In this document: piece by piece, positions 38,436 through 48,593 of the stretch
Layout: each line of letters begins with the position of its first letter
Position numbering within the stretch: the stretch's first letter is position 1
Assembly (NCBI GenBank): GCA_965655465.1
Contig: CBFHGY010000005.1
Span: 1-54,638, forward strand
From: Bacteroidia bacterium
GTDB lineage: Bacteria; Bacteroidota; Bacteroidia; NS11-12g; UBA955
DNA length: 54,638 bases
Direction of reading: 5' to 3'
Made by a program: the position numbers and the translations under genes
The notes under the pieces: generated by a model
What the model was told of the DNA's origin: nothing
Database searches by the model: none
The model's input: the letters and a program-made list of their open reading frames with translations, nothing else

Positions 38436-39695
38436 TTACAATCCTAAAAGTGCTTCTTCGGGGCGTTTACCGCTAAGTAACATTTCAGGATTCTCTAGTA
38501 AGTTTTTAATCCGAACCAGGAAACTCACGCTTTCACGACCATCAATAATTCGGTGGTCGTAACTCAATGCTAAATACATCATGGGTCTAATTACCACTTG
38601 ACCTTTTTCAGCAATAGGTCTTTCCACGATGTTATGCATCCCAAGAATTCCACTTTGGGGAGGATTTAAAATTGGAGTACTCATCATAGATCCAAAAACA
38701 CCTCCATTGGTAATGGTAAATGTACCTCCGGTCATTTCATCAATACTCAATTTGTTATCGCGGGCTTTTAGAGCAAGTCGCTTTACTTCCTTTTCAATTC
38801 CGTCTAGCGTTAGGGCTTCAGCATTGCGAATAACAGGCACTACTAGGCCTTTAGGCGCACTCACGGCAATAGAAACATCACAATAATCGTGATACACAAT
38901 TTCTTCCCCATCTATGCTCGCATTTACTGAGGGCCACTCTTGAAGGGCAATACAAACTGCACGCGTAAAGAAACTCATGAATCCAAGATTAATACCGAAT
39001 TCTTCTTTGAATTTGTCCTTATATACATTGCGCAAATCCATAATTGGCTTCATGTTCACTTCGTTAAAAGTAGTGAGCATGGCAGTATCATTTTTTGCTG
39101 CTACCAATCGCTTGGCAACTGTTTTACGCAGGTTGGACATTTTTTCGCGACGGGGTTCGCGGGAAGCAGCTACCCCAAATCCATGACCGGCATTTTCTTT
39201 TTTAGAAACACCTTGAGAAACTATGGCCTCTAAAACATCTATCTTCGTTATACGGCCATTTGAACCTGAACCTTTAACGGTTTGTGGGTTTACGTTATAT
39301 TCTGCCATCAATTGCTTCGCAATAGGCGACGCAGATAAATCACTAAAATCAGCAGCAACTGGAACTTTGGCAGGTTCTATAGGAGCCGATACCGGCTCTG
39401 ATTTTGCAGGACTTGCTTTAGGCTCCGGAGCTGGAGCTGCATTCGCAGGCTTTTCGGCGGTGTCATCGATCACGGCCACTACTGAATTCACTTCGATTGT
39501 ATCGCCTTCAGCACCTTTAAGTTCCAGTATGATACCCGCTTTTTCAGCATTAACTTCGAATGTTGCTTTATCGCTTTCGAATTCGGCTATGGGATCATCC
39601 ATATTCACCCAATCACCGACTTTAACCAACCATGCAGAGATGGAAACTTCGCTTACGGACTCCCCAGGTGCGGGGACAATTATTTCAATAGACAT
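38436..39695 (-). CDS. sucB: 2-oxoglutarate dehydrogenase E2 (dihydrolipoyllysine succinyltransferase)
   Basis: Lipoyl domain ESDKA, E3-binding [30 protein letters not shown]. Confidence 0.96.
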
Positions 39696-39792: not shown

Positions 39793-39818
39793 AAAAATCC
39801 CACTCTCGTGGGATTTTT
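39793..39818 (-). terminator. Intrinsic terminator closing the gldL/M-like operon
   Basis: Perfect 11-bp arms AAAAATCCCAC / GTGGGATTTTT. Confidence 0.85.
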
Positions 39819-39835: not shown

Positions 39836-42031
39836 TTATAATTTCTCTTTGAGTGGGATAAAAGTTTTCCCCGTATCATCAGACTTGTTTAGGATGTATG
39901 ATAATCCCATATGCAATTGAAAATACCAATCATTTAAGCCGTTGGTTGATCTTGCGGCCGTGGATGAAATCAAGTCATGCGTCGTTGAACCACCTGATAT
40001 TTTTGATAATTTCGCCGTTTGAAGACCATTATCTGCTCGAATGAATCCATTATCAGGATTTGAGAAATATTCATCCGACATTAATACTTCTAACCATCTA
40101 TCGTAATCACCACCGTACCAAACTCCGGGACCGTAATCATCCAAATAGTCCGTAAAGGTGTATACGGCCTTCATCTCACCTTTAAACGCCCAACGTTTGC
40201 GCAAATACGCCAATTGCCATGATAGCCCAATATTCCCTGAAAACAATCCATAGGGCTTCTTGTTTTCTAAGAAATTCTGTCCTTCCATTCCTAGTTTACG
40301 CAAGGAGGTGCGCTCTTCACTCCATAAACGTGCCTTATAATCTGAGTAAGATTCCTTACTTCCTTGATTTCTGTATGAGATACGATAAGGGGTATAGGTA
40401 AAAACACCCGCGCTAATTCCCATACTGTTGACAAACTTCCACTTTTGACCAGGCTTTAGATTGTATTTGCCAATATGCCATAAGCCCTCAATATCCCAAA
40501 TAACCATAGGTGTTACAAACATCAAAGGCCATGTATTTTTATAAATCTGAATTTTATCATAATTGGCTCCTTCTACAAAAGGAACTTTACCGCCAGAAAG
40601 CAATCCAGTTGCCCATAAATTATGCATGGAAACCGTAGAATGGTACAAATTTGATTTTACAGAAAATCTATTGGTAAAATTATATTGTGCATATCCTCCA
40701 TAACTAATTTCGATGGTACTTGGCATAGGAGCAAATTTGTGGCCGATATCTCCGCCACCGTAAATGGAACCGCCACCCCAAAAACCAAACTCCCAAGTTT
40801 TCAATTTTACGATGTCTTCTTTTTTACCAAACATCGGAACGATTACCATAAATCCGATTTTCGCTTTCAACGTTGTATCTGGCCACTCGGGACTAATTAA
40901 AGTGGTATCTACTTTGCGGTACAATGGAGGAGGTAATTGTGCCGGTGTCAATTTAGGAAGTTTGTACTTAACCCCATTTTGCATAGTAACCTCGGTAGGA
41001 TTACCCTCTAAATACGTAACATTCAACGTATCTGAAGAAAGCTTCTGATTAATATTAACGCTTCTGTTAAATGAATCCCTCACCGCTACTAATTTCACAT
41101 CTCCCACTACGTCTAAAACAATTTTGCCAAACTCATGCGTTGCGCCTAATATGAAAGGTTCGTTCCCTTTTCTCTCCTTCAAAGAACTTACCGCATCTAC
41201 TTTTATTTTAGGCAAACTGTTATCCATACGATTGTCGAATACGACATCGTTAATACTTGCATTTGAATAAATTGCCCCAGCATTGATTTCTAGAGGCAAG
41301 CCTGAACCACCGCTAACAGACAAACCCACATTAAAAAACCCAGAGTAATTATTTACAAAAGTTAAACTACCTAAATCGATATTTTCAGGGTTTGAATTGC
41401 GCGCAATATCCAAGTGCAATATACCCATACTTGAATTTTCACCCTCAATTTCATTATCGTTAAAAGTTAGGTCTTTCAAATGGTATTCGATTCCTTCGCT
41501 ACCCACCTTCTCCAAAATGATATTACTTCTATTGTTGTAAAAACGAGAATTGGAAATACTAAAATTGATAGATTTAGACTCCCTTAAATCTAAGTAGGGA
41601 TTTGATGTATAAAGTATAGGCTCCTTGTAATTAATGCTATGAATCTGAGCATTGCTAATTTCGACATTCTTACGATACCAAAATGGATCAAATCTCAAGA
41701 ACTGAACCAGTTCTTTTACATCTACATTCTTGAACTTTATATTTTGAGTTTCATTAATCCCACCAATAACTATACCTAATCCCGGATTGTTATCATCTTG
41801 AGATTTAATTTGAACCGGATTATCTACTGTACCCGTTACTTCCAAACCTCCATTCACAATAATTCTTGCCCCTGGTTCAAATACCAACGTTTGTCCTGCC
41901 TTTATTCGGAAAGTTTCGCCCGCTTCAATGGTTTTGGTCCCTGAAACCAAAATTTCATCGTTTTGCGCACTTACTACATCGAACATTACCAATGCGATGA
42001 TTATTGAAATGATATGAATTTTCTTTTTCAT
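39836..42031 (-). CDS. Fusion of an N-terminal beta-helix-like domain and a C-terminal DUF6089/PorG-like outer-membrane beta-barrel
   Basis: Signal peptide; TLVFEPGARIIVNGGLEVTGTVDNPVQIKS beta-helix entry motif with N/D-rich rungs; Pro-rich linker; barrel motifs WEFGFWGGGSIYGGGD, LRKLGMEGQ...KPY, YTFTDYLDDY, NDWYFQLHMGLSY. Confidence 0.7.
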   Translation of the reverse strand: MKKKIHIISIIIALVMFDVVSAQNDEILVSGTKTIEAGETFRIKAGQTLVFEPGARIIVNGGLEVTGTVDNPVQIKSQDDNNPGLGIVIGGINETQNIKFKNVDVKELVQFLRFDPFWYRKNVEISNAQIHSINYKEPILYTSNPYLDLRESKSINFSISNSRFYNNRSNIILEKVGSEGIEYHLKDLTFNDNEIEGENSSMGILHLDIARNSNPENIDLGSLTFVNNYSGFFNVGLSVSGGSGLPLEINAGAIYSNASINDVVFDNRMDNSLPKIKVDAVSSLKERKGNEPFILGATHEFGKIVLDVVGDVKLVAVRDSFNRSVNINQKLSSDTLNVTYLEGNPTEVTMQNGVKYKLPKLTPAQLPPPLYRKVDTTLISPEWPDTTLKAKIGFMVIVPMFGKKEDIVKLKTWEFGFWGGGSIYGGGDIGHKFAPMPSTIEISYGGYAQYNFTNRFSVKSNLYHSTVSMHNLWATGLLSGGKVPFVEGANYDKIQIYKNTWPLMFVTPMVIWDIEGLWHIGKYNLKPGQKWKFVNSMGISAGVFTYTPYRISYRNQGSKESYSDYKARLWSEERTSLRKLGMEGQNFLENKKPYGLFSGNIGLSWQLAYLRKRWAFKGEMKAVYTFTDYLDDYGPGVWYGGDYDRWLEVLMSDEYFSNPDNGFIRADNGLQTAKLSKISGGSTTHDLISSTAARSTNGLNDWYFQLHMGLSYILNKSDDTGKTFIPLKEKL

Positions 42032-42037
42032 TTTGAT

Positions 42038-43408
42038 TTACTTCACTTGAATCAATAATGGAGATTCAAACTCCATATTCTTTATTTCATTATTTATATC
42101 TGCGGATTCCACCACTACGTATCTCAGATTTTCTAAACCCTCTTTGGGTAGTTCAATAGTTTCAGTAGCAGAAACCATCAATTCATTAGATATCCCAACT
42201 AAACGATACCTCAAATTAGAGATTTTGTATTTAAAATTCTGCAAATCGGGATGACTTGCATATACACTCAATTTGTTATTTAAACGCAATCTAGTTTTTG
42301 CAATTGACCCTCCACTCACTCCTTTGGCATTTACAAATGGCCTTGGCAAGTTTTGAACATAAACCGAATCACGCAAAAGCAAACCACCCGTCGCATTATT
42401 TATTTGGAATTTACACCAACCAACGCGTTCTGGTGTAAAGATCACTTTGCTCTGTTGCTTATTAATAATTGGGTCTTTATCACAATCGCATGACAAATTT
42501 CCAATATTTAACAGATTTACATATTGCAACTCCGACGTTTTTCCCTCAAAAAAGATATTGTACTTATTCTCTTTTTCTTTTTCGAAATTCTTTGCAACAG
42601 AAGTTACTTTCAAATTCTCTTCTACTCCATTTTTCTTGAAACTCAAGTCATAAACACCCACATATTGAGGAATAAACAGCAATGTATCACCAGCCCATTT
42701 ATTTAGGGGGAAAATCTGATTGTTTTGTTTGGCTTCAACTTTAATTTCTTCGTGGTTGAAAACCACCACTTTTACCGTATCACCCGGACGAACGGCTTCA
42801 ATATTAAACGCCATCAGTATTAAATAATCCCGATTTTGCTCTTCAGTTGTGATGATCCCTCCGTGTAATAACTTCATTTTAAGTTTCAAGTCGGCCATCC
42901 AGGTAACAACTACTCCAATGGGCACATGTTTAAACTTCCACTCTACCCATAGGTTCGCCTTTCCTGCTTCTAATCCATTCATCAAATCGCCAGAAAACAA
43001 CTCTCGAAATTCCTTCTTTTTAGGATTATTATCAGGCAAGCCAAGGTAATAATCTCGGAGAATCACTAATTTATCAAATAACCTGTACCCTTTTTCTAAT
43101 CTTATAAAAAAGTTATCGGTAAGGTTATAGGCATCTATTCCCTTATGTAAGGTTTCTTTATCATCGTATCCTACAAGTTTCCTAAAACCGCTCTCGATTT
43201 CAGTTACATTATCATAAACATCTTTAACCACAGGTTCGTCAAAAACTACTTTTGTGGATCGTTCCATATATTCTGCAAGCGTCACGTTTGTACGTAACCA
43301 TTCGATAGGAATTTGCAACATACTTAATGATATAAAAATCAAGTACATTACACTAATAAGTTTGAAGCGTAAAACTTTAGCCTTTTTAACTCTAACGTAA
43401 TTCCCCAT
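42038..43408 (-). CDS. GldM/PorM-like single-pass inner-membrane protein (paralog A)
   Basis: RFKLISVMYLIFISLSMLQIPIE aligns with the GldM TM motif RQKMINLMYLVF...E; helical domain then Ig-like domains; ends SPLLIQVK. Confidence 0.75.
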   Translation of the reverse strand: MGNYVRVKKAKVLRFKLISVMYLIFISLSMLQIPIEWLRTNVTLAEYMERSTKVVFDEPVVKDVYDNVTEIESGFRKLVGYDDKETLHKGIDAYNLTDNFFIRLEKGYRLFDKLVILRDYYLGLPDNNPKKKEFRELFSGDLMNGLEAGKANLWVEWKFKHVPIGVVVTWMADLKLKMKLLHGGIITTEEQNRDYLILMAFNIEAVRPGDTVKVVVFNHEEIKVEAKQNNQIFPLNKWAGDTLLFIPQYVGVYDLSFKKNGVEENLKVTSVAKNFEKEKENKYNIFFEGKTSELQYVNLLNIGNLSCDCDKDPIINKQQSKVIFTPERVGWCKFQINNATGGLLLRDSVYVQNLPRPFVNAKGVSGGSIAKTRLRLNNKLSVYASHPDLQNFKYKISNLRYRLVGISNELMVSATETIELPKEGLENLRYVVVESADINNEIKNMEFESPLLIQVK

Positions 43409-43409
43409 A

Positions 43410-44822
43410 TTATCCTTTGATTTTTAAAATTGGGCGGCCTTTTGAACTCACACCGCCCTCTTGACCCAACAAACGGATATTATCAAATATCAACACACTC
43501 CCCTTGGGGGCTTTTTCCTCCAATTCCCGCAAATCGTTTCTCAAAAAACGTGTGGTAGAATGTATTTTTTTAAATTTACCATCGGGATATGTAACACTCA
43601 TATCAAAATCAACTACTTGCCAAAATGGATTTACTGATTCCAATTTATTTGCGTTTCCTAATTCGGAAATTTCACCGCTTACACCCATTAAAGCAACCGT
43701 TTCATCCGGCTTTAAAGTAGATACAAATGATGCCTTATCTATAATGTTATTCCCATTTTTCATTACAACATCAAATACTCCTTCTGATTCAGGTACAATT
43801 TGCAAAATCCATCCTTTGCGTGTAATTGAAGCTGCATTCGACTCAAAAGTCACCGCATTACCTCGTGGAACATAACTTGAATCTAGAGTAACGATGATAG
43901 GCTCCCCAACAAAACCAGAAATACTCGTTCCGCTATTGATATATCGAAACATTGGAGGTACCACTTTAAAATTCGTAAAAATGCGCTTTTCATTGGACAT
44001 TATTTCCAAAGAATACGCTCCAATTCGACTAGGTTTGTAAAGCAGATTGTAGGTAGCCACTCCAATAGAATCCAATTTTATAGGCATTCCATTAATTTTA
44101 GCGGATAATACATCACTCGCTGTTTTGGGTCTTAGTTTAATACTGAGGGGTTCTCCAAGAATTAAGTTGCGTTTGAATTTCTGAATAAATTCAGTTTCAT
44201 CTAAAGATACAATTTCAAACTTGGGTAATTCGGATTCTTTATTTTTTAAGGTCAGTATCGTTTCATAAAGCATCACAGTTTTAAAATGCTCTATTATCGA
44301 AGGAACGACTCCATTAGGAGTTCCTTTGAAGAAATAATATACCGCTTCAATATCTTGGCCTTCCGTAGAGGTGTAGGTAACAAACTCCTTTTTTAAGTTT
44401 TTATTACCGATAGGACTATAGGCTTTTAAATATCTTTCAAAAATTCCTCTTAATTCAGGAGCCCATTTGCCATTTCGCACTTGAATTTCAGCAAATTTAT
44501 TTTCTCTTAATCGATCCCCTATTACGCCTGTATTCTTTTTGAAATCATCGTATGCTTTCGCTATTACTTCAAGTTCTTGAATACAAGAAAGGGTCGCCTT
44601 TTTAAGTGCGATTTCTTTTTCTCCCTTGGCTTTAAAAACGTTAAGTTCAGAAATCAAACGTTCGTTCACCATGATTTGAGATCTTGCAACATCTGGATAC
44701 TGCAAAACATACATACCTGGGGAGGTAAAAAAGATTTGTACAATGAAAATCAAATAGAACAAAGACAATCTCATAAATGAGATATTCTTTGACTTTGTGA
44801 CTTTTACGGTGAGATTTCCCAT
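43410..44822 (-). CDS. GldM/PorM-like single-pass inner-membrane protein (paralog B, divergent TM)
   Basis: Shares the MGN start and YLIFI TM motif with paralog A; C-terminal WQVVDFDMSV...KGSVLIFDNIR resembles the GldM C-terminal domain. Confidence 0.68.
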   Translation of the reverse strand: MGNLTVKVTKSKNISFMRLSLFYLIFIVQIFFTSPGMYVLQYPDVARSQIMVNERLISELNVFKAKGEKEIALKKATLSCIQELEVIAKAYDDFKKNTGVIGDRLRENKFAEIQVRNGKWAPELRGIFERYLKAYSPIGNKNLKKEFVTYTSTEGQDIEAVYYFFKGTPNGVVPSIIEHFKTVMLYETILTLKNKESELPKFEIVSLDETEFIQKFKRNLILGEPLSIKLRPKTASDVLSAKINGMPIKLDSIGVATYNLLYKPSRIGAYSLEIMSNEKRIFTNFKVVPPMFRYINSGTSISGFVGEPIIVTLDSSYVPRGNAVTFESNAASITRKGWILQIVPESEGVFDVVMKNGNNIIDKASFVSTLKPDETVALMGVSGEISELGNANKLESVNPFWQVVDFDMSVTYPDGKFKKIHSTTRFLRNDLRELEEKAPKGSVLIFDNIRLLGQEGGVSSKGRPILKIKG

Positions 44823-44831
44823 TGTAGAAGA

Positions 44832-45335
44832 TTACTTCTTCAGAATATCGTTATACTGTTCGTTGATTTTTTTCAAATTTTCGTTGTAACCGGTCATTAA
44901 GTTATTGAACTCTGTAACTGATTGCTTCATGTTATTTGATTGTTCAACGTTAGACCGCATTTCCGTTTTAATTTCATTAACCGCCTTGGTCATTTCCATC
45001 AAACCGTTGTTCAACTCCTTTAAAGTTTCACTAAACTGCTGCATAGCAGACTGGTATCCATTGGTTTGAACTTCAACGCCACGCTCATCCACGTTATCCA
45101 ATTGTGGAAATACCTGCTCCCATTGATATTCTTTCTCGGTTACTTTTCTTTCAAAAGCTGAAATCAAGAACACGATTGCTTCAACCGTAAGACCCACGAT
45201 GAACATTTCGTTGGCATAGTTCCAACCTAAAAATTTGAACATCGCACCGACCAATACGATTGCAGCACCAACTCCATAGATAAAGGTAACGGTATCTAAT
45301 TTACCTTTTTGTTCTTTTTGATTCATATTACTCAT
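44832..45335 (-). CDS. GldL/PorL-like two-TM motor subunit (short)
   Basis: FIYGVGAAIVLVGAMFK...GLTVEAIVFLISAFE...YQWEQVFPQL followed by a coiled-coil tail. Confidence 0.88.
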   Translation of the reverse strand: MSNMNQKEQKGKLDTVTFIYGVGAAIVLVGAMFKFLGWNYANEMFIVGLTVEAIVFLISAFERKVTEKEYQWEQVFPQLDNVDERGVEVQTNGYQSAMQQFSETLKELNNGLMEMTKAVNEIKTEMRSNVEQSNNMKQSVTEFNNLMTGYNENLKKINEQYNDILKK

Positions 45336-45364: not shown

Positions 45365-45877
45365 TTACTTTTTAAGAATGTGTTCCTGAAATGAATTCCA
45401 ATTGGCAACATTTTGCTTCAAGGCTCTTTTAGTAGCTGCCTTGTTTAATATTACAAAGGCAACTAGCAATACGAATAAGGCACTTACCGAAACTACTAAT
45501 TGGTCTGCAAACTTCTTAGCCATCTCTTCCTTAACGCCATCAACTAATTTATTCTGTTGTTCGAATTTTTCCGCAAATTGATCCAACGCAATATTCATAG
45601 CGCGCTCATTCTGTGCTTGAAGTTCTAAACTTTTTTTCATCTCAGATTGAACCGCTTCTTTATTGGTCTGCAATTCAGTTTTCATTAAAAACAATGCACT
45701 TTCTAATTCGGTGATTCGTTGTGCATATTGCAAGTTTTGTTTTTGCAATCGTTCCAATTTTTGATCTAATTCGTTCGTTTTAATTGCATTATCTGTTTGA
45801 GCATAACTCAAAGAGCTTGAAATAAAAGCAATAACTAAGAGTATTAGTTTATACATTGTGATAGAGGGTTTATTCAT
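45365..45877 (-). CDS. Hypothetical coiled-coil protein with a signal peptide and a C-terminal TM anchor
   Basis: Start is ATG 45877 or 45856 (MYKLILLVIAFISSSLSYAQ); long heptad-rich region; hydrophobic VVSVSALFVLLVAFVIL near the C-terminus. Confidence 0.7.
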   Translation of the reverse strand: MNKPSITMYKLILLVIAFISSSLSYAQTDNAIKTNELDQKLERLQKQNLQYAQRITELESALFLMKTELQTNKEAVQSEMKKSLELQAQNERAMNIALDQFAEKFEQQNKLVDGVKEEMAKKFADQLVVSVSALFVLLVAFVILNKAATKRALKQNVANWNSFQEHILKK

Positions 45878-46070
45878 ACAAAAATCGCTGCGAAGATATG
45901 ACATATTTTGAAATTCAATGATGTTTTATATATTACGTTTATAACAATTGATTTTTTTTATTTATTAAAAACCTCGTTTACAATAAGCAGATTGCAAAAA
46001 TCAGACCAAACCCTATATCCCCAAATACCAATAATCCGTTACTTAAATTTATTCTTTAGTTTTGCATGTC

Positions 46071-48593
46071 ATGCGCACACATTTAACCACTTTTATAACG
46101 GCTTGTTTGCTGCTTATAGGCTCTTCGGGAATTGCGCAACCCGCTCAATACCTAACGATTGTTGTCACTGAAAAGTCTTCCGGTGACCCCATCCCCTTTG
46201 CCTCAATTTCTTTAAAGTCAAAATCGTTGCAAGTGGAAACTGACTTCAACGGGAAGGTTCGAATTGCTTTGCCTCAGACGGATTCGGACACCCTTGTTTG
46301 CTTTTTTACTGGTTATACAACGCTTAGTAAACCATTAGATTCCGTTCGAAAATCAACCTTTCTGAAATTAGAAATGGAACGCGAAATTGTTCGTAGTCAA
46401 TCCGTTTCTATTTCCTTAGGAATCAACCCTGCACACAGATGGATCCGATTAGCTCAACAAAATCGCAATCTACATAACCCCCTTAATTTTCCGGGCCATT
46501 CTACATTGCTGAGAACACAAAATACGATTGCCCTAAATAATATCTCTTCAAACTTCTTCCATAAAAAATTGGGCAGTTCTCTTCACGAACTTTCCGATAC
46601 GCTTAGTTATGTGAGTGGCGATTCTGCCCAACGTGTATTGCCCGTTTTCCATTCTGAAACGATCAGTAGAATTTTTCAACAATCGAACCCTTATAAACAA
46701 CAAGAGTTTATTCTAGGTAGCCGGGTTCACGGCGTTGGCGTCGATCAGGGCGAATTTATTTCGCAATTAACCGGTTCTGCACTCCTTACCTATAATATAT
46801 ATAAGCCTATCCTCACTTTTTTGGAAAAAGGAATTCCTTCTCCTATTTCCGATGCTGCCTTCAATGCATATAATTATGAACTTATTGGTGTCGATAAATC
46901 CAAAAAACTTCGTGAATTTTTAGTGCGTATTACCCCACAAAATGAACAAGATGTGGCTTTCAGTGGAATTATTTGGATACAAGAAGTTTCAGGTGCGATT
47001 ACCCGATTTGTACTCGAATTACAAGGTACTTCTAATTTGAATTACATCGATCGCATCAAAATTTCACAAGAACACGTTATCGATACAAACTTCCAGAATA
47101 GATGGGTCCTTAAACACGGAAGGATCTCCTTCGACCTAGAAGACTTGAATAAAAAGGCGGCAAGTATCATCGCGCTAAATGAAATTTCCGTAATTTCATA
47201 CCGATTAGAACCCTTTGTTGCCGATAGTATAGGAACTCAACGCATTGTTAAAGATGATGACGCCCATAATCGCGATACCAGTTTTTGGGCTAATTTTAAT
47301 TTTTTGAATCCCAATGAAGCCTACAAACGTATACACGAACAAATTGATTCCGTAAAAGCAATCCCAATTGTAGCCAAAGGGGTGAGCTTAGTTAATGTCA
47401 TGGTCGACGGATACTATGGACCCGGACTGCCCATTGAATTCGGGCCTTATTTCCTTATCGCCGGATACAATCCGTTAGAAGGCATTAGAACTCGATTGGG
47501 CTTCCGGACTTCCTACCGGCTGTCTGAAAAATGGCAGTGGGAAAGCTTTATTGGATATGGATTTAGAGATAAAGAAATCAAATACGGTGCTAAGTTCAGT
47601 TGGCATCCCAATCCTAAAAACGGCACTTATTTTAAACTTTCCCATGCACAAGATGTAGAACTTATTGGATTTTCCGATAACGATGCGGTTTCTAGTGGAG
47701 ATGCTTTAGTAACGGCCTTGAATATGTTCTCTAACACTTCGGTTACCTATTGCGAATCAGAAAAATTGGAGATAGGCACCGATATCGCAAGGGGATTAAC
47801 GCTTTCCAGTGTTTTGTCACATAGACGATATTCACTTCCCAGCAATCAACGCGTTCAACTTGCTTGGTACGATTCCTTACCCAGTCAACGCATTGGTTTT
47901 AACCTTAACAATGCTACTGCCACCTTAAAAATTCGCTACGAACCCAAAGTTTTTTACTTGATTCGCCGTGGTCGCCGCAAAAAAATAAGTCCTTCCGGAC
48001 CCATTTATACCCTTTCCTACATGCAAGGTATCAAAGGTTTCTTGGGAAGCCGATTTGATTATTTTCGGATAGCAACACAGGCCGACCACCAGAAAGTCTG
48101 GGGTCGATTTGGTCGCACCTTAACCCGTATTCAAGCCTCTAAAGTTTTTGGCGCCATTCCTTTCCCACTTTTAGATATCCCTTTGGGAAATCAATCCTTG
48201 GTACTCAATAACCGTTCATTTAATCAAATGCAGTTGTTTGAATTCGTTGCAGATCAAACCATTCAATGGCAAATTTCCCATCAATTTAACGGCTACTTTT
48301 TCAATCAAATCCCCCGACTTTCGAAGTTAAAATGGCGCGAAGTGATCCATACAAAAGGCATTTGGGGTAGTTTAAGTGCTGAAAACGCGGCATTTATCCC
48401 TCAGGAAATTCCAGGAGACCAACCCATTATTCCCATTCATGGATTCGGTGGGAAACCTTACCTAGAAGCGGGAGTAGGCATTGAAAATATGTTCCGATAT
48501 TTCAGAATTGATGCGATTTGGAGACTCACCCATAGAGACGCATTTCCCGATAGAAATTTTGGAGTGAAACTCTCGGCATTTGTAAAATTCTAA
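46071..48593 (+). CDS. DUF5686-family outer-membrane protein with an N-terminal CarboxypepD_reg-like domain
   Basis: GDPIPFASI...TDFNG...FTGY N-domain; SPISD, YNPLEGIR, PYLEAGVGIENMFRYFRIDAIWRLT, terminal Phe; TAGTTTTG -7 element at 46057-46064. Confidence 0.82.
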   Translation: MRTHLTTFITACLLLIGSSGIAQPAQYLTIVVTEKSSGDPIPFASISLKSKSLQVETDFNGKVRIALPQTDSDTLVCFFTGYTTLSKPLDSVRKSTFLKLEMEREIVRSQSVSISLGINPAHRWIRLAQQNRNLHNPLNFPGHSTLLRTQNTIALNNISSNFFHKKLGSSLHELSDTLSYVSGDSAQRVLPVFHSETISRIFQQSNPYKQQEFILGSRVHGVGVDQGEFISQLTGSALLTYNIYKPILTFLEKGIPSPISDAAFNAYNYELIGVDKSKKLREFLVRITPQNEQDVAFSGIIWIQEVSGAITRFVLELQGTSNLNYIDRIKISQEHVIDTNFQNRWVLKHGRISFDLEDLNKKAASIIALNEISVISYRLEPFVADSIGTQRIVKDDDAHNRDTSFWANFNFLNPNEAYKRIHEQIDSVKAIPIVAKGVSLVNVMVDGYYGPGLPIEFGPYFLIAGYNPLEGIRTRLGFRTSYRLSEKWQWESFIGYGFRDKEIKYGAKFSWHPNPKNGTYFKLSHAQDVELIGFSDNDAVSSGDALVTALNMFSNTSVTYCESEKLEIGTDIARGLTLSSVLSHRRYSLPSNQRVQLAWYDSLPSQRIGFNLNNATATLKIRYEPKVFYLIRRGRRKKISPSGPIYTLSYMQGIKGFLGSRFDYFRIATQADHQKVWGRFGRTLTRIQASKVFGAIPFPLLDIPLGNQSLVLNNRSFNQMQLFEFVADQTIQWQISHQFNGYFFNQIPRLSKLKWREVIHTKGIWGSLSAENAAFIPQEIPGDQPIIPIHGFGGKPYLEAGVGIENMFRYFRIDAIWRLTHRDAFPDRNFGVKLSAFVKF

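Follow-up and report, generated by a model that had tools for sequence, protein, structure and literature searches.

A Second GldL-Type Motor Cassette

The stretch of DNA analyzed here, 54,638 nucleotides (nt) long and referred to below as the window, comes from the genome of an uncultured freshwater Bacteroidia bacterium, and all coordinates refer to it. Five open reading frames (ORFs) lie head to tail on its minus strand in the order X179-L167-B-A-O731. L167 is a short stator subunit of the GldL type, while B and A are two unequal GldM-like proteins. Together the five genes constitute a second GldL-type proton-motor cassette, which contains neither gldK nor gldN and is found in the same genome as a canonical locus for a secretion system of type IX (T9SS). 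The cassette has the following features:

45365..45904, minus strand: X179, with which the operon begins; a signal peptide, a coiled coil in the periplasm, and a C-terminal transmembrane (TM) anchor.
44832..45335, minus strand: L167, GldL-like stator subunit of reduced length, with a pair of TM helices and a short coiled coil on the cytoplasmic side.
43410..44822, minus strand: paralog B, GldM-like, 470 amino acids (aa); S15, R18, Y23, M37.
44709..44783, minus strand: TM helix of B (residues 14-38).
42038..43408, minus strand: paralog A, GldM-like, 456 aa; R14, Y22, E36.
43301..43372, minus strand: TM helix of A (residues 13-36).
39836..42031, minus strand: O731, the last gene of the operon; signal peptide and C-terminal PorG-like outer-membrane barrel.
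39793..39818, minus strand: terminator-like hairpin with an 11-bp stem and a T run, 18 nt past the stop codon of O731.

L167 matches the Pfam family GldL_N (E = 2e-25, 89 bits) as well as TIGR03513 (92 bits), and equivalents of the GldL residues Y13, K27, E49, and E59 are present in its sequence. It is the sole L gene within the operon. Neither of the outer genes, X179 and O731, matched a GldK or GldN family in the Pfam and NCBIfam searches. The canonical locus is found on another contig (C16) of the same genome and has the order porP/sprF-gldK-gldL-gldM-gldN. It encodes a GldL of 220 aa and a GldM of 589 aa with R9, Y17, and E31, and a canonical GldM was also found in 30 of 30 good-quality relatives. 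The original prediction for this locus had taken A and B to be the T9SS rotor. This identity was rejected because the canonical gldKLMN locus on C16 is found elsewhere in the same genome, and A and B belong to a separate cassette. The numbering R9/Y17/E31 used in that prediction is correct, as the genome's own canonical GldM begins MAGGKVSPRQKMINMMYLVLTALLALNVTKE.

The canonical GldM proteins of this genus (L007 6688-8457 in the case of contig C16, G000) are 589-601 aa long and match TIGR03517 in two pieces, residues 1-119 and about 170-522. The split match indicates that they have an insertion in or after domain D1.

Paralogs A and B Share the GldM Fold

The ORFs of A and B were found on the minus strand exactly where the original prediction had placed them, and the residues it had named are all present. 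The relationship between the two proteins is barely visible when the single sequences are compared; a pairwise BLASTP alignment is limited to the first 27 residues (E = 0.002). When family alignments comprising 54 A homologs and 51 B homologs were compared as profiles, 350 columns could be aligned (hhalign 97.1%, E = 6e-11). AlphaFold2 models of A and B (mean confidence, pLDDT, 76 and 74, respectively) display the same architecture, with a TM helix followed by a helical D1 and three β-domains. In Foldseek the top PDB match of both models is the periplasmic domain of PorM (7cmg), with E-values of 8e-12 for A and 2e-15 for B, and B also matches GldM (6ey4, E = 3e-14). The predicted paralogy of A and B is thus well beyond chance.

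A and B are too diverged for the curated GldM family models. A reaches 19.5 bits against Pfam GldM_1st, for which the cut-off is 25, B gave no GldM match in the Pfam search, and TIGR03517 matched neither of them. Searching the PDB sequences with the family profiles gave nothing for A and only filamin-type Ig repeats, with no GldM or PorM, for B, so that fold comparison and intermediate profiles are needed to place the two proteins. Such an intermediate is provided by the GldM-like protein of a related cassette that has only one M gene (the single-M cassette, see below), whose profile aligns with that of A (E = 1e-7) and, over the full length of B, with that of B (E = 1e-11). A profile search with the B family against 1.84 billion representative sequences returned about 20 full-length B clusters; the other matches were giant Ig-repeat proteins, and canonical GldM was not evident among these matches, for which names were not given. 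Taken together, the profile alignment and the fold matches show that A and B have the GldM fold and are paralogous. Their position is also that of M-type genes, directly after a gldL homolog, in the window as well as in every related locus for which enough flanking sequence is available.

Key Residues of the Transmembrane Helices

The TM helices were compared using 72 A sequences and 57 B sequences, taken from related loci and from a homolog search. Positions are given relative to the conserved tyrosine, with the corresponding residue of Flavobacterium johnsoniae GldM in brackets:

Y-8 (R9): in A, R in 72 of 72; in B, S in 54, T in 2, and I in 1, thus basic in 0 of 57.
Y-6: in A, K, R, or Q; in B, M (the sub-clade of the window) or K.
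Y-5: in A, L in 72 of 72; in B, K or R in 57 of 57.
Y (Y17): in A, Y in 72 of 72; in B, Y in 57 of 57.
Y+14 (E31): in A, E or D in 72 of 72; in B, M, L, Q, and others, with E in 2 of 57.

The R-x7-Y feature of the GldM TM helix is present in every A sequence and absent from B, which has kept only the tyrosine. Among the B representatives listed from the search of 1.84 billion sequences, Y-8 is occupied by S, T, L, I, or N and never by a basic residue, Y-5 is K in all but one (P0116), and Y+14 is often E or D. A YL(I/V)FI core and a proline at Y+12 are common to A, B, and the single-M proteins.

Judged from these alignments, the loss of the arginine is a defining feature of B, and the loss of the acidic residue at Y+14 is a feature only of the B sub-clade to which the window belongs. 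Of the proposed conserved loss of both Arg and Glu from one copy, the arginine part therefore holds (0 of 57 basic), while the glutamate part is confined to this sub-clade, many distant B proteins having E or D. An F. johnsoniae strain with the GldM mutation E31A glides normally (PMC8986121). Because of this, and because many B proteins keep E or D at Y+14, the argument from glutamate is a light one, and the contrast between Glu36 of A and Met37 of B was rejected as evidence.

For the GldM arginine, a salt bridge with Glu49 of GldL has been proposed that would be formed by only one GldM copy of the pair at any moment (10.1101/2022.01.28.478170). It was originally suggested that the AB pair would contain a single proton-active helix, an idea that is weakened by the conserved Lys/Arg at Y-5 of B. 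From simple helix geometry, Y-5 would be placed about 60 degrees round the helix from Y-8 and 4.5 Å deeper, and a lysine or arginine at this position could reach the same region as Arg(Y-8).

Pairing of A and B in Related Genomes

A total of 32 related loci were found, all of them from metagenome-assembled genomes (MAGs) of uncultured Bacteroidia/Flavobacteriales. The order X179-L-B-A-O731 is kept in every locus with enough flanking sequence, often with sucB as the next gene, even as identity falls to 29% for A and about 29-30% for B. The junction between the two M genes is tight throughout. In the window a single base separates the TAA stop codon of B from the ATG of A, and in all loci the two genes either overlap or are 1-2 nt apart.

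The 41 related genomes fall into two groups: 18 have both A and B, in every case as neighbors, and the other 23, among them three genomes of the same genus that are at least 96% complete, have neither. The joint absences imply that the cassette is dispensable, yet it has never been seen with only one of these M genes. The gene content looked for in a 5:2 motor with an unequal inner pair, one GldL_N gene together with two paralogous M genes that are always co-inherited, is thus what was found. Absence or decay of B in related loci, which would have spoken against the original prediction, was looked for, and B is neither absent nor decayed where A is present. Decay of B was accordingly rejected, as all loci but L038 have an intact and conserved copy. 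L038 is from a long-read MAG (the contig name contains "_pilon") and yields only fragmented matches, to X179 and O731 as well as to B and A. It is the only such example, and the fragmentation may be caused by assembly indels.

The Single-M Cassette and the Origin of the Duplication

In loci L040-L046, which belong to uncultured Bacteroidia of a sister family, a cassette is found with a short GldL-like protein, one GldM-like protein of 546-571 aa, and in most cases an O731-like protein, but without X179. The three single-M proteins tested from this group pass the Pfam GldM_1st cut-off and also match GldM_3rd and GldM_4th. Arg(Y-8) and the tyrosine are found in eight of eight aligned single-M proteins, and in most of them Y+14 is Asp and Y+12 is Pro. 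As the single-M protein keeps Arg(Y-8), B is the copy that has changed at the arginine position, while A keeps the ancestral charge pattern of the TM helix.

A maximum-likelihood tree has the topology canonical | (single-M, (A, B)). With canonical GldM as outgroup, the clade of single-M, A, and B is recovered at 99% support, which supports the paralogy of A and B within one type of cassette, and the A+B grouping has an SH-aLRT value of 92. A and B have very long stems of equal length (2.0-2.1 substitutions per site), and their subtrees mirror each other. Groupings of A or of B with the single-M proteins were not rejected by approximately unbiased (AU) tests (p about 0.25). For the order of events in the tandem duplication, the basis is therefore synteny together with the best tree. 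The sequences point to one old duplication within this type of cassette.

Further GldL-type genes were seen in the sister family (genomes G025, G033, G039, and G026; locus L047). These genomes have three or four GldL_N matches each, and G026 encodes a more divergent pair of an L protein (159 aa) and an M protein (523 aa) that is not accompanied by an O731 gene. It seems that diversification of GldL-type modules has taken place on several occasions.

Domain Conservation

The TM segment is the best conserved part of A, with 20 of 29 columns invariant and a mean major-residue frequency of 0.90. In B, 10 of the 29 TM columns are invariant and the mean frequency is 0.80, compared to 0.59-0.78 elsewhere in the protein. 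Such conservation is unexpected for a mere membrane anchor, and the fact that the TM helices are the best conserved parts fits a tight packing inside the L ring. The two proteins differ strongly when it comes to the distal domain. D4 is the least conserved domain of A (0.57), while that of B is among its most conserved domains (0.73; 27 of 96 columns invariant). This domain of B can also be aligned to its counterpart in the single-M proteins, with an (I/L)IF-x-NI(K/R) motif in common.

The Outer Genes of the Cassette

X179 gave no family match above the cut-off in the Pfam and NCBIfam profile searches. It is conserved 5' of the L gene in 25 related loci and is restricted to the two-M form of the cassette, being absent from the single-M cassettes. 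X179 accompanies every two-M cassette, and its gain may date roughly to the duplication of the M gene.

O731 is conserved 3' of A in all loci with enough flanking sequence, and an O731-like gene is found 3' of the single M gene in most single-M cassettes. Its residues 412-469 show a weak match to the NCBIfam model T9SS_PorG (E = 7e-8, below the cut-off), while the label "beta-helix" for its N-terminal region is taken from the original prediction. It is probably the output partner of the shaft. The gene occupies the slot where gldN would be in a canonical locus. Canonical PorG is linked to GldK by a disulfide (PMC12635249), and since the cassette has no GldK, the barrel of O731 may be driven directly by the A/B shaft. 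The hairpin at 39793..39818 marks the end of the five-gene unit.

Some O731 homologs are much longer (876 to about 1035 aa; L016 5849-8872, L018 4385-7015, and L021 1108-4215), and in these the C-terminal barrel region is duplicated, as seen from a second tblastn match to residues 431-716. Outside the cassette, a gene of the DUF5686/CarboxypepD_reg type (46062-48593, plus strand) is divergently oriented upstream of X179 in the window and is found upstream of the cassette in about one-third of the related loci. The sucB gene (38436-39695, minus strand) is found downstream in about half of them.

A Possible Heterodimeric Rotor

In the canonical GldL5GldM2 motor two M helices are placed inside ten L helices, an arrangement that is inherently asymmetric (10.1101/2022.01.28.478170). 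Since the cassette has a single L gene next to two M genes that are inherited together and closely coupled, its most economical reading would be L5:A1:B1, in which one A helix and one B helix are enclosed by a pentamer of the short GldL-like protein, and we consider the chances of this being correct to be about even. The indications for it are indirect, namely the joint presence or absence of A and B, their junction of at most 2 nt, the high conservation of both TM helices, and the single L gene shared by two M genes; the unequal residues at Y-8 and Y-5 and the contrasting conservation of the two D4 domains also fit. The ancestral Arg(Y-8), the partner of the Glu49-equivalent in the stator, would then come from A, while B would present Ser in its place and a Lys/Arg one turn deeper, at Y-5. 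The paired periplasmic arms would reach O731 in the outer membrane, mainly via the conserved D4 tip of B. Of these elements, we infer the 5:2 stoichiometry by analogy with GldL5M2, and likewise the A:B pairing, the division of labor, and the coupling to O731. A stronger version, in which L5:A1:B1 is obligate and proton coupling and force delivery are split between the two halves of the shaft, is put forward only tentatively. A precedent may be seen in the heterodimeric plug predicted for AglR5-AglQ-AglS, a 5:2 motor of the Tol type (PMC11761067).

Several observations weigh against a heterodimer. Co-occurrence and tight gene coupling would also be expected if A2 and B2 were both needed in one machine. 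The TM helices of canonical GldM homodimerize (PMC8986121), which makes the homodimer the ancestral default. With its invariant Lys/Arg at Y-5, usually accompanied by Lys at Y-6, B does not appear to be clearly charge-dead, and the residue at Y-5 could let B2 work alone. In addition, the AU tests leave the order in which A, B, and the single-M proteins split unfixed (p about 0.25), and all members of the family are from uncultured MAGs.

The main alternative is that the single stator gene serves two motor species, with A2 and B2 each in an L5 ring of its own. This would give two kinds of shaft, perhaps differing in tip or direction, that act on the same outer-membrane partner. The homodimerization of canonical GldM agrees with such an arrangement, as does the strong contrast in conservation of the D4 tip between A and B, and the basic residue at Y-5 could replace the lost arginine of B. 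On the other hand, the loss of just one M gene was never seen in 41 genomes and about 30 loci, and the B/A junction of at most 2 nt points to equal dosage of the two proteins. A B2 rotor would furthermore be without the Arg(Y-8) that is invariant in A, in the single-M proteins, and in the canonical GldM proteins examined here. We therefore regard two separate homodimeric motors as unlikely. A somewhat lower probability is assigned to a rotor of A2 in the L5 ring with B outside it, either as a force-transducing arm resembling TolA or TonB or as a partner of X179. A third single-pass protein is indeed found at the periphery of the pentamer in the Tol, Exb, and Agl motors (PMC11761067), and B combines the lack of a ring-facing arginine with a conserved distal tip. 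Nevertheless, the YL(I/V)FI core and the proline at Y+12 are found in B just as in A and the single-M rotor, B has the full dimer-type GldM architecture, and the single-M cassettes function without any such arm.

It would be still less probable that B is a charge-dead copy that does not rotate and serves as a plug, a brake, or an assembly factor. The Arg position of B is never basic, as expected for such a copy, but B is conserved from end to end, both in the TM segment (10 of 29 columns invariant) and in D4 (27 of 96), its evolutionary rate equals that of A, and a basic residue is retained at Y-5.

Relationship to Known Motors

Compared to the GldL5GldM2 and PorL5PorM2 motors of F. johnsoniae and Porphyromonas gingivalis, the cassette has in common a GldL_N stator with equivalents of Glu49 and Glu59, a single-pass M protein with R-x7-Y (here only in A), a helical D1 and three β-domains, and an L gene directly upstream of M. 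It differs in that L is only 167 aa long, as opposed to about 220, and that there are two unequal M genes instead of one. There is no gldK or gldN, and a beta-helix/PorG-like outer-membrane protein is found instead. The M proteins score below the Pfam and TIGRFAM cut-offs, and the cassette coexists with a canonical gldKLMN locus. The single-M cassette is closer, as it shares the short L, the O731-like partner, the YLIF core, the proline at Y+12, and the clade in the tree. It has, however, one M protein with Arg(Y-8), usually with Asp at Y+14, that passes the GldM_1st cut-off, and it is without X179.

The AglR5-AglQ-AglS motor of Myxococcus gliding also consists of one pentamer gene and two paralogous inner-helix genes, and for both systems a heteromeric inner pair with unequal members has been proposed. 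Agl belongs to an unrelated family of the TolQ/TolR type, and its heterodimer is likewise only predicted. The coupling residue of Agl is an aspartate of the inner subunit and not an arginine facing a glutamate of the outer subunit.

Full-text literature searches turned up no account of a second cassette of the GldLM type or of GldM-like subunits in duplicate. The two-M cassette is thus an undescribed system, for which a heterodimeric rotor is plausible.

To our knowledge, the rotor is a homodimer within a five-fold ring in every GldLM or PorLM motor solved. For the whole 5:2 motor class, the question is how two identical Arg-bearing helices alternate. In the two-M cassette an Arg-bearing and an Arg-less rotor gene have been kept strictly together for a long time, with A orthologs down to 29% identity, and the A/B pair would be a naturally occurring rotor with a single Arg, open to structural and biophysical study. 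If the proposal is true, an obligate L5:A1:B1 would be the first motor of the GldLM class with a genetically fixed asymmetric rotor, and nature would have provided a way to ask whether stepping of a 5:2 motor depends on charges in both inner subunits. The cassette also indicates that the GldLM motor is a reusable module, found in abundant uncultured freshwater Bacteroidia with a different outer-membrane partner and without a GldK/GldN ring.

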